Part shown: one piece after another, positions 50,084 through 52,763 of the stretch
How positions within the stretch are numbered: the stretch's first letter is position 1
Layout: each line of letters starts with the position of its first letter
Assembly (NCBI RefSeq): GCF_029227855.1
Contig: NZ_CP074356.1
Source of the DNA: Escherichia coli
GTDB lineage: Bacteria > Pseudomonadota > Gammaproteobacteria > Enterobacterales > Enterobacteriaceae
Length of the DNA: 64,000 nt
Strand: one strand, 5' to 3'
Program-made: the position numbers and the translations under genes
Notes under the pieces: model-generated
Database searches by the model: none
Seen by the model: only the letters and a program-made list of their open reading frames with translations
What the model was told of the DNA's origin: nothing

Positions 50084-50872
50084 TTAACTGTATGCATGTA
50101 GCGTACGTTGGCAAAGTGCCGAACGTACGCAATCCTCTTTACCGAATCGGACGATCCCGACCATTTCATCTTCTTCGAAACGTTCCAGCGCGTCACTTAA
50201 TCCGGAGCGCACGCCGCGAGGCAAATCGCATTGCGTGATATCACCGTTGACGATAACCGTCACGTTCTCCCCGAGGCGGGTTAAAAACATTTTCATTTGC
50301 GCGGCAGTCACATTCTGCGCCTCGTCAAGAATGACGACTGCATTTTCAAAGGTACGTCCACGCATATAGGCGAACGGCGCAATTTCCACCTTCCCTATTT
50401 CCGGTCGCAGGCAGTACTGCATAAAGGAAGCCCCTAAGCGCCGGACCAGCACGTCGTAGACCGGACGAAAATAGGGAGCAAACTTTTCTGCGATATCTCC
50501 AGGTAAGAAGCCAAGATCTTCATCGGCTTGCAGAACTGGACGGGTGACGATAATCCTGTCGACATCCTTATGTATCAGGGCCTCTGCCGCTTTTGCTGCG
50601 CTGATCCAGGTTTTTCCGCACCCGGCTTCGCCCGTGGCGAATATCAGCTGCTTACTCTCAATAGCCTTCAGATAGTGCAATTGCGCTTCATTTCGCGCGA
50701 GGATGGGCGAGGTATCGCGACTGTCGCGGGCCATACCAATGGCTTCTACGCCGCTCATCTGCACAAGCGAGGTGACCGATTCTTCTTCACGCTGCTTATG
50801 GCTGCGCGAATCCCGTCTCAGCACACGTTTTGCCTCGCGACGAGCTTTGATCACTGCTTTTTGTCTTCCCAT
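50084..50872 (-). CDS. phoH: Phosphate-starvation-inducible ATPase PhoH (conserved core); upstream start unresolved
   Basis: Core MGRQKAVIKARREAKRV...GEAGCGKTW (Walker A) to ...LHAYS. Same frame stays open up to a GTG at 51007; a different-frame ATG at 51147 opens a 98-codon ORF that ends at 50851. Confidence 0.85.
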   Translation of the reverse strand: MGRQKAVIKARREAKRVLRRDSRSHKQREEESVTSLVQMSGVEAIGMARDSRDTSPILARNEAQLHYLKAIESKQLIFATGEAGCGKTWISAAKAAEALIHKDVDRIIVTRPVLQADEDLGFLPGDIAEKFAPYFRPVYDVLVRRLGASFMQYCLRPEIGKVEIAPFAYMRGRTFENAVVILDEAQNVTAAQMKMFLTRLGENVTVIVNGDITQCDLPRGVRSGLSDALERFEEDEMVGIVRFGKEDCVRSALCQRTLHAYS

Positions 50873-51339
50873 GGAGAGCACCTTGAGTTGTTTGTATTCA
50901 TCACACGCGCCGTTGGCAGCGCGATTATGCGCACGAACATCAGAGGGTTGGCTTCCTTGTAAGCCATAGTTTGCTTTTGGATAAAATGCCGAAAAACGGC
51001 TACGCACACCGTTTGCGGCGTCGGTAACACGAGTAAAGAGAGGAAGTGAGAAAAATACAGAGTGACGAAGTTGCTACCGGAGGAGAAATCTCCGCGAGTG
51101 GTGGAGCCTTGCTTAACAAAACATTGTCCAGAACAGGACGTTACCATACGCGATCTCCATAGTGACTGACTATCACTGCCGGGAACTTCCGCTGCTACTT
51201 AATAAGTACAACAGATCTCGCATTCATTGCAACAATATATTCACTTATATTTAACTACAAAACACCATTTCAGTGACATTAGTTTCTACTGGAAAGATGA
51301 CAGAGTGATGACAGTGATGAAAAAAGCTGTGTGCTTTCA

Positions 51340-51490
51340 GCAGGATTCGCATCAGGCATCAGCGCACGAACGCCGGATGCGGCGTGAACGCCTGATCCAG
51401 CCTACCAAACCCGCACCGATTGTAGGCATGATAAGACGCGCAAGCGTCGCATCAGGCATCTGCGCACGAACGCCTTATCCGCCTAAACAC
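51340..51490. repeat. Cluster of REP elements between efeB and phoH
   Basis: Tandem REP-like units GCCGGATGCGGCGTGAACGCCTGATCC, TGTAGGCATGATAAGACGCGCAAGCGTCGCATCAGGCA and CGCACGAACGCCTTATCCGCC. Confidence 0.75.
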
Positions 51491-51491
51491 A

Positions 51492-52763
51492 TTAAACCCG
51501 CAATAACGCGCTTCCGAGATAATCGTTCGCGTCCTTCACTCCCGGCAGCGAAAAAAAATAACCACCGCCGATAGGTTTAACGTATTCCTCCAGCGCTTCG
51601 CCATTGAGCCTTTTTTGTACTGTCAGGAAGCCTTTTTCCAGATCGTGTTGATAGCAGACAAACAGTAGCCCCATATCCAGTTGTCCGGAGTTGGTGACGC
51701 CCAACGAATAACTGTAGCCACGACGCAGCATCAGGCTGGACTCACTCTCTGGCGTGCGGGGATTCGCCAGCCGGATATGGCTGTCCAGCGCAATCACCTT
51801 CCCCTCCGGATCGCTGGCGTAATCGGGAACATCATGCTCATGCTGCATTCCCAGCGGCGCACCGGTTTGTTTGTCGCGACCAAAAATCGTCTGCTGTTCT
51901 TTCAGTGGCGTTCTGTCCCAAAACTCCACCCGAAACTGAATCAACCGCACCGCCTGATAGCTGCCACCGATTGTCCACTCAGGCTCCTGCTGATCTGCCG
52001 TTACCCACACCACTTTTTGCATCAACTTATCATTCTGGCTATCGGGATTGGCAGTGCCGTCTTTGAAACCCAGCAAATTTATCGGCGTCTCTTTGCCTTT
52101 ACTACGCGCCGCGTGATCGGAAATAAACCCTTCCCGCTTCCAGCGCACACTGAGCAAATCCGGCGTGTGTTTGATGATATCGCGCAGCGCATGGATCACC
52201 GTATCCTGGGTGTTGGCGCAAATTTGTAGCAACACATCACCATGACATAACGCCGCATCAAGCGAGTCATTGGGGAAACGCGTCATCTTCTGCAGCTTTT
52301 TCGGCATCTGCGACGCAAGGCCAAAGCGCTCATCAAACAATGAGTGGCCCACCGATAATGTGATGGTGAGATTATCGGGCGCAATGTAGCCGCCAAGAAT
52401 GCCGGAATCGAGTGGTGGCAGGCGCGGATTTGGCGTTTCTGGTGCCGCTCCGCCCTGAGTCAGAAAAGAAAAACGCTGAGTCAACAAGCGAAACAACCGT
52501 TCAAGATCGGCTTTATCGCTGGCAAGCACATCAAACGCCACCAGCATCATTGCGGCCTGTTGTGGCGTCAGGATCCCTGCCTGATGCTCACCATAAAACG
52601 GCTGCTTCTCATTGCGTGCATCCGGTGAAAGCGTCCCCGGTGCACTTTGCGTTTTTTGTGCATGAGCGACCGGACAACTTCCTGCCAGCGCCAGTGCACC
52701 AATCCCTTTCAGTAAACGTCGGCGTGACGGTTCATTCACGCCGTTTTCATCTTCATACTGCAT
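51492..52763 (-). CDS. efeB: Dyp-type haem peroxidase / deferrochelatase EfeB (Tat-secreted)
   Basis: 423 aa ORF with twin-arginine signal [29 protein letters not shown]. Confidence 0.95.

Follow-up and report, generated by a model that had tools for sequence, protein, structure and literature searches.

The phoH leader of Escherichia coli occurs in fused and split reading-frame states, and may be maintained for being translated rather than for its peptide

Where does the phosphate starvation-inducible ATPase PhoH begin, and is its gene damaged when two candidate start codons lie in different reading frames? The question is raised by phoH in Escherichia coli contig NZ_CP074356.1 (assembly GCF_029227855.1), of which we analysed a stretch of 64,000 nucleotides (nt), here called the window, and in which a first-pass annotation made from the letters alone had noticed a break of frame at the 5' end of the gene. 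We find that the phoH leader in the window is a 'split' allele, that the conserved PhoH protein has 262 amino acids (aa) and starts at the ATG at 50872, and that the frame break upstream of it is a real, common natural allele; the 354-aa form of strain K-12 appears from comparison of related genomes to be one of two old and widespread leader states. The leader open reading frame (ORF) has its own Shine–Dalgarno (SD) sequence and ATG, and translation of its Salmonella orthologue is supported by published ribosome profiling (Ribo-seq; PMC10117436). We consider it about 50-65% likely that selection maintains the act of translating through a structured leader to the phoH ribosome-binding site (RBS), by coupling or as protection against polarity, and not the peptide that results.

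In the window, phoH proper occupies 50084..50872 on the minus strand, the strand of all leader features described here, and runs from the ATG at 50872 to a stop at 50084 (262 aa plus stop, beginning MGRQKAV...), with the SD sequence AAGGTG at 50884..50879. Its product belongs to the PhoH family, passing the cut-offs both of Pfam PF02562 (258.7 bits against a cut-off of 27, 4e-77, residues 57-261 of the 262-aa product) and of the NCBIfam PhoH equivalog NF007827 (512.3 bits against 380, residues 9-261). The core is undamaged and 100% identical to WP_000533536-type proteins, and the PhoH sequences of 80 Enterobacteriaceae loci share 93-100% identity, beginning with residue 1 of the short form. 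The leader ORF (50851..51147) lies in the +1 frame relative to PhoH. It opens with an ATG at 51147..51145 and comprises 98 codons followed by a TGA at 50853..50851; its RBS (51145..51158, counted with the ATG) consists of GGAGATCGCG at 51158..51149 and a one-base spacer. The leader ATG stands at -275 from the phoH ATG, in phase 1, and the ORF overlaps the first 22 nt of phoH, its TGA falling 19-21 nt into the gene. These starts and stops are as the first-pass annotation had given them. It had also set the 1064 nt from 51147 to 50084 against 1065 nt for K-12, while allowing that this reference length might be wrong; it is right, the MG1655 record (b1020, NP_415539.1) being 1065 nt and 354 aa and beginning MVTSCTG.... 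In K-12 the upstream and the internal ATG share one unbroken reading frame; in the window they do not.

Databases are divided over which start to use. The RefSeq Prokaryotic Genome Annotation Pipeline (PGAP) places a 789-nt coding sequence from the ATG equivalent to 50872 in fused and split alleles alike, even on K-12-type fused alleles, and annotates nothing over the segment upstream of it, and the long start is used only by the curated MG1655 record. The suggestion in the first pass that the accepted start might simply be 50872 therefore holds for RefSeq/PGAP but not for the curated MG1655 entry. In split alleles the PhoH frame is, in addition, open upstream to a GTG at 51007 (50084..51007, minus strand; 307 aa), and at least one GenBank record, a 307-aa 'PhoH', seems to start at the equivalent GTG; conservation lends this start no support.

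The locus is the usual E. coli efeB-phoH-pgaD region, with neighbours as in K-12 when the window annotation is compared with that genome, and it was found in 5,418 of 5,426 complete E. coli genomes. Pairwise alignment of the window with K-12 needs just one gap, of 1 nt and on the window side (TATTTTT-CTCAC against CATTTTCAACCTC), at ~51051/51050, a position uncertain by a few bases because the surrounding stretch is highly divergent; the region near 50960..51000 where an indel had been suspected lies ~60-90 nt too far downstream. The divergent stretch is a leader segment of 138 nt (50997..51134, minus strand) that holds the 1-nt difference and in which the two sequences differ at ~29 positions (79% identity). 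Beside it, identity between window and K-12 is 100% over the next 124 nt and 99.3% over the gene's first 270 nt.

Both versions of this segment are common. A window-type query of 151 nt matched 1,964 of 5,417 complete E. coli genomes at 90% identity or more (151 nt aligned) and 3,453 at 80-90% (K-12-type, 152 nt aligned), and the reciprocal K-12-type query matched 3,417 genomes at 90% or more and 2,000 at 80-90%; the window-type segment is thus carried by ~36% of the 5,417 genomes and the fused form by ~63%. The split form occurs in O104:H4, strain 7/2 and strain H2, and the fused form in O157:H7, K-12 and strain 317, the last being recombinant inside the segment. Within it, the two haplotypes stand about as far apart as each stands from E. 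albertii (84-85%). Escherichia sp. E1V33 matches the window type at 97.8% identity and Escherichia sp. MOD1-EC7003 the K-12 type at 92%, a pattern suggesting a polymorphism that is old or introgressed. From E. fergusonii, too, a 98-aa protein is on record that falls into the same 90% cluster as the leader product, and some GenBank submitters have given the 98-aa product a name. A homopolymer sequencing or assembly error, which the first pass had entertained, would suit a gap that abuts a T5 run, but we give it practically no chance: the same allele recurs in the ~1,964 complete genomes, which come from many laboratories and platforms, the exact 98-aa ORF stands on at least 1000 contigs, and ~29 differences in 138 nt make a distinct haplotype and not K-12 minus one base. 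We likewise discarded the idea of a frameshift pseudogene, as the allele is neither rare nor private, the core is intact and so is the upstream frame.

Beyond E. coli, one genome per species was surveyed for the 80 closest loci, all of them found by the PhoH core, and the leader was traced within Enterobacteriaceae; counts of leader start and frame cover the 81 sequences that reach far enough upstream. The upstream start GGAGATCGCG-N-ATG is present in all 81, as a GGAGA SD core and an ATG at the aligned position, with a spacer after GGAGA that varies in a few, and in all 81 the leader ORF runs to the phoH start region. It arrives there in the PhoH frame in 54 loci from many genera, K-12 included, giving a fused product of 352-356 aa. 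In 22 loci it is split, reading the +1 frame for 97-98 codons to a common TGA at +19..+21; these are the window, E. albertii, E. whittamii, E. coli E69, Citrobacter, Salmonella and one Enterobacter cloacae. Five loci from Kluyvera, Pseudescherichia and relatives also use the +1 frame and end at -26, after 84 codons, and the third frame is used by none of the 81. From the leader ATG to that of phoH, the frame in use has no stop in 76 of the 81 loci, and in the other five it has only the -26 stop with which their leader ORF closes. Stops in the two unused frames number 2.8-7.3 per sequence and fall at 20-51 distinct positions. In dinucleotide shuffles, the probability of the leader frame being open was 0.01-0.10 per sequence. 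The site at which the frame changes differs by lineage, being the T-run at ~51051 in window-type E. coli, GTAGCCG-T in E. albertii, Citrobacter and Salmonella, and elsewhere again in E. cloacae M-7, Kluyvera and Pseudescherichia.

Two side observations concern these loci. The base immediately before the leader ATG, 51148, is T in the window (GCGTATG), a purine (G/A) in nearly all other loci examined and C in two Buttiauxella; owing to this single base difference the best database matches over 151 nt stand at 99.3%. Accessions CACSKA010000011.1 and CACSJR010000007.1 involve a contig labelled 'Chryseobacterium sp. 18061' that bears an Enterobacteriaceae phoH locus, with a PhoH 95% identical to that of E. 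coli; its leader peptide differs from that of 'Citrobacter sp. 18056' at ~8 of 92 positions, both being Pluralibacter-like, and probably the label is wrong or the assembly contaminated.

Does the leader ORF persist for the sake of its peptide? Codon-position entropies (positions 1/2/3) are 0.83/0.80/0.83 in the fused extension and 0.66/0.65/0.64 in the split ORF, against 0.12/0.05/0.90 in the PhoH core, and the pairwise ratio of nonsynonymous to synonymous divergence (dN/dS) is 0.5-1.3 for the leader, fused and split pooled, against 0.01-0.06 for the core. Pfam and NCBIfam gave no match in the 92-residue extension or in the 98-aa product. On these measures the leader peptide shows no selection at the amino-acid level and evolves near-neutrally. 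At the same time leader dS is below core dS, which indicates that the leader is constrained at the level of nucleotides, blind to codon position. In 54 genomes, third-position entropy over the first 30 codons of phoH (50783..50872) is 0.47 against 0.96 in the rest of the gene, a halving of variability, and the RNA-level constraint therefore reaches into the start of the phoH coding sequence.

RNAalifold on 60 non-redundant leaders proposed 10 helices with 48 pairs. In these, 96.9% of alignment cells are paired, a share that falls to 26-49% once the pairing partners are slid; 17 pairs have changed on both sides, compared with 10.6 +/- 1.3 in shuffles, and 132 cells are compensatory, compared with 46.7 +/- 6, neither value being reached in any of 500 shuffles. 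Compensatory change beyond these controls argues that the leader has a conserved RNA secondary structure, with the covariation mostly in helices at 51096..51077, 51022..50985 and 50929..50899. The first of these is the hairpin CGCGGAG-N-CUCCGG (helix 3, 51077..51096), in which three of six pairs have changed on both sides (11 sequences, for instance, have AU in place of GC). In the second, the nested helices 4 and 5 (50985..51022; GACGCC...GGCRUY around CGGU...GCCG), this applies to nine of ten pairs, with up to 29 of the 60 sequences compensatory at a single pair. The third is the hairpin CAU..CGCGCUG-loop-GGCGCG..AUG (helices 7 and 8, 50899..50929), where four of seven upper-stem pairs have changed on both sides, with UA replacing CG in 12-14 sequences, and where E. 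albertii shows the compensation directly (CGTGCC...GGCACG).

Other helices scarcely vary. Directly after the leader AUG stands the hairpin GUCC-N6-GGAC (helix 2, 51126..51139), which is 99.6% paired and which we rank with the invariant helices, its one compensatory change being GCCC/GGGC in Phytobacter massiliensis. The hairpin UGGCUU-ACAAGG-AAGCCA (helix 6, 50949..50966) is 100% paired and essentially invariant in the 60 sequences; its loop, ACAAGGA, resembles what we take to be the CsrA binding consensus. The last element, helix 9 (50868..50887), would pair the phoH SD region, CUCAAGG, with CCAUGGG, which includes the phoH AUG, at a predicted ~-5 kcal/mol, and this SD-AUG hairpin is predicted in most taxa by consensus and single-sequence folds. 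The 124 nt before the phoH ATG (50996..50873) are near-invariant as a block. An Rfam cmscan of 50700..51500 at E<=1 returned no match to the leader, and a match to CPEB3 in that scan was set aside as chance.

Two published observations, made in different organisms, bear on translation here. Ribo-RET profiling found that E. coli phoH has an in-frame internal initiation site with a conserved start, which we take to be the ATG equivalent to 50872, and the preprint notes locally enhanced synonymous-site conservation in phoH and leaves its cause open (Meydan et al. 2019, bioRxiv 10.1101/520783). The gene is the same, and the synonymous conservation corresponds to the near-invariant block 50996..50873, but the model given there assumes one ORF with two in-frame starts and two isoforms, and it does not apply to the window, where the starts are in different frames. 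In S. Typhimurium SL1344, a 98-aa candidate small protein in the phoH 5' untranslated region (5'UTR), STsORF34, is listed with Ribo-seq 'y' (Venturini et al. 2020, PMC10117436, Table S1). STsORF34 is orthologous to the leader ORF of the window, matching it in length, in start context and in its TGA inside phoH, and shares with it the C-terminus ...MAYKEANP..RVM..NSRC.PWEDKKQ, whereas its first ~60 residues are almost wholly unlike those of the window. That listing makes no tie to the 354-aa annotation of K-12, frame toggling, peptide constraint or RNA structure. The supplements of Baek et al. 2017 contain no phoH entry. In the literature searched, we found no work joining the internal phoH start with STsORF34, or phoH with an upstream ORF (uORF), leader peptide, coupling or 39 kDa.

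In translationally coupled uORFs, such as secM-secA and those of ribosomal-protein operons, upstream translation opens a hairpin that hides the downstream RBS. The phoH leader resembles them in having its own RBS, a stop within ~25 nt of the downstream start and a predicted hairpin over SD and AUG, and in that the ORF is conserved and its peptide is not. It differs in lacking an identified arrest motif or sensing step, in being long (92-98 codons) and in being fused in frame to the main ORF in many lineages, unlike ordinary coupled uORFs.

Upstream of the leader, the PhoB binding site (pho box) TGTCATCACTCTGTCATC of the phosphate-regulated phoH promoter lies at 51296..51313 (minus strand) and is an exact 18-nt match to the phoH motif reported from PhoB chromatin immunoprecipitation sequencing (PMC10294691). 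The ArcA-P binding region overlapping the constitutive P2 promoter lies at 51226..51279 (minus strand), with two mismatches to the published table site, given as -80..-21 of the transcription start (PMC3798270); from these distances the P2 transcript would begin near 51205, upstream of the leader ATG. Both promoters map upstream of that ATG, and therefore both transcripts should carry both starts. A sigma-70 consensus scan of 50800..51400 found no promoter, so that these positions come from the literature, and a plus-strand 'terminator' in the same interval was just the invariant hairpin read in reverse. Repeated palindromic units resembling repetitive extragenic palindromes or bacterial interspersed mosaic elements (REP/BIME) occupy 51362..51483, in the interval from efeB to the phoH promoter, with sub-threshold matches to naRNA4 of 33.8 and 32.1 bits against a gathering score of 59.5.

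If it is translation through the leader that is selected, then the kept start and the openness of the frame, the freedom of the peptide and the acceptability of either frame that reaches phoH would all be explained. Ribosomes that initiate at 51147 would unfold the leader helices together with the SD-AUG hairpin and would then terminate beside the phoH start, so that re-initiation or fresh initiation could follow at 50872; on the way they may also shield the leader from attack by Rho or RNase. The state of the frame would set only a by-product, an N-terminally extended PhoH when fused or a separate 98-aa peptide when split, and for that reason the window allele would be functional and not defective. 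The 354-aa product of K-12 would likewise be a by-product of the fused state. The proposal of the first pass, a 1-nt indel that truncates a long isoform and spares the short one, survives in part: a net 1-nt difference from K-12 does put 51147 out of the PhoH frame and leaves 50872 untouched, but the extension is not under protein-level selection and the upstream ORF has been kept complete.

Several points weigh against selection for translating the leader. We counted ~6 frame-changing events, by eye, and these give only p ~0.02 for the third frame never being used; relatedness inflates the locus counts, and the 22 split loci ending at +19 stem from few independent events. The SD-AUG hairpin is weak and invariant and so has no covariation to support it, and single-sequence folds of the leader are no more stable than shuffles (z = -1.0 and -0.66), for which reason the claim of leader structure is drawn from covariation and not from thermodynamic stability. 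The coupling step is one that we infer, and the SD of phoH itself, AAGGTG, is reasonable and might support initiation independently. One E. coli genome, EEC_W5 (NZ_CM130020.1), has a K-12-type leader that has lost one further base in CTCCTCCGG, so that its leader ORF stops at -143. It is the sole such case among the sampled genomes and could be a real mutant or a C-run assembly error; unless it is the latter, a premature leader stop is tolerated at least transiently. The evidence of expression comes from Salmonella and from K-12. Finally, Kim and colleagues reportedly described in 1993 a PhoH of ~39 kDa with an N-terminal sequence fitting the long ORF; if that is right, the long form is a real K-12 product and could have a function.

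A functional long isoform is the chief content of another account, by which the 354-aa protein is ancestral and the frameshift in the window abolishes it, leaving the short isoform and a partial loss of function that is neutral or mildly deleterious. The fused frame is found in 54 of the 81 loci and ~63% of E. coli, is stop-free in all 54 fused loci and is annotated at 354 aa in the curated K-12 record, all as this account would have it. We nevertheless think it unlikely, as the extension is equally variable at its three codon positions and its dN/dS far from that of the core (0.5-1.3 against 0.01-0.06), no domain was matched in it, and the PhoH equivalog model begins only with the short form. 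Moreover the upstream ORF has not decayed after the change of frame, its start, SD and 97-98-codon frame being kept across Citrobacter, Salmonella and Escherichia, which loss of an isoform does not predict. The leader could instead be primarily a structured RNA regulator (a platform for a CsrA-type protein, a small-RNA target, or a ligand or temperature sensor) in which the ORF is secondary. Such a role is compatible with selection for translation and would draw on the compensatory changes in four helices, the near-invariance of the 124 nt before the phoH ATG, the reduced synonymous variation in the leader and the first 30 phoH codons, the excess synonymous conservation noted by Meydan et al., and the invariant hairpin with ACAAGGA in its loop. 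As a primary explanation, however, we rate it distinctly unlikely, for it does not account for a poorly conserved leader middle that is stop-free in the frame set by the upstream ATG, nor for the Salmonella Ribo-seq signal; no Rfam family matches, and the literature searched yielded no link between phoH and CsrA.

A further explanation is recoding. Programmed -1 frameshifting of the dnaX or IS911 type takes place at A-AAA-AAG, and in the window the slippery-looking C-AAA-AAG (50863..50857) is read from the sequence two codons before the leader stop, in the leader-frame codons GAC-AAA-AAG-CAG-TGA (C-AAA-AAG-CAG-TGA, 50851..50863, minus strand). As in those systems, the upstream frame reads through AAA-AAG a little ahead of its stop codon, with the downstream frame at -1 to it, so that a -1 slip there would enter the PhoH frame and yield a fusion of ~352 aa from split alleles; of the 22 split loci that end at +19, 21 have besides kept CAAAAAG. 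Yet the heptamer begins with C and not A and is not a canonical X-XXY-YYZ, neither consensus nor single-sequence folds place a stimulatory structure downstream at the usual spacing, and CAAAAAG, which codes for PhoH residues 4-5, is for that reason just as conserved in fused taxa. The lone split Enterobacter has CAGAAAG, and we found no experimental hint of frameshifting nor evidence of a fusion product; we regard this explanation as very improbable. A bolder version of our own reading would make the leader a riboregulator that has to be translated but is indifferent to frame: a structured RNA, possibly recognised by CsrA or some other factor, would gate the leader ORF, and PhoH would be made only if the ribosomes on that ORF arrive at the phoH start. 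Fused and split states would be held in Escherichia as an old balanced polymorphism, since the frame state would decide whether a 39-kDa extended PhoH is also made. One might cite for the balanced polymorphism the 79% identity over 138 nt within flanks of 99-100% and the sharing of the haplotypes with other Escherichia lineages, but taken as a whole this version strikes us as quite doubtful.

As an allele, the split form is ordinary, being common, old and harmless to PhoH; the interest lies in what the leader reveals. The reading of a Pho-regulon gene is corrected, in that 92 residues of the 354-aa PhoH of K-12, as given in UniProt/EcoCyc style, evolve like non-coding sequence, and Salmonella, Citrobacter and a third of E. 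coli carry their counterpart as a separate overlapping ORF. The internal start of K-12 phoH and the STsORF34 of Salmonella, published without connection to one another, become one conserved element, which would also account for the excess synonymous conservation whose cause Meydan et al. left open. Annotation pipelines and pseudogene callers should not flag the split allele as a frameshifted phoH. Together, isogenic fused and split alleles offer a natural experiment on whether the translating of a long leader, and not its product, controls a starvation gene.

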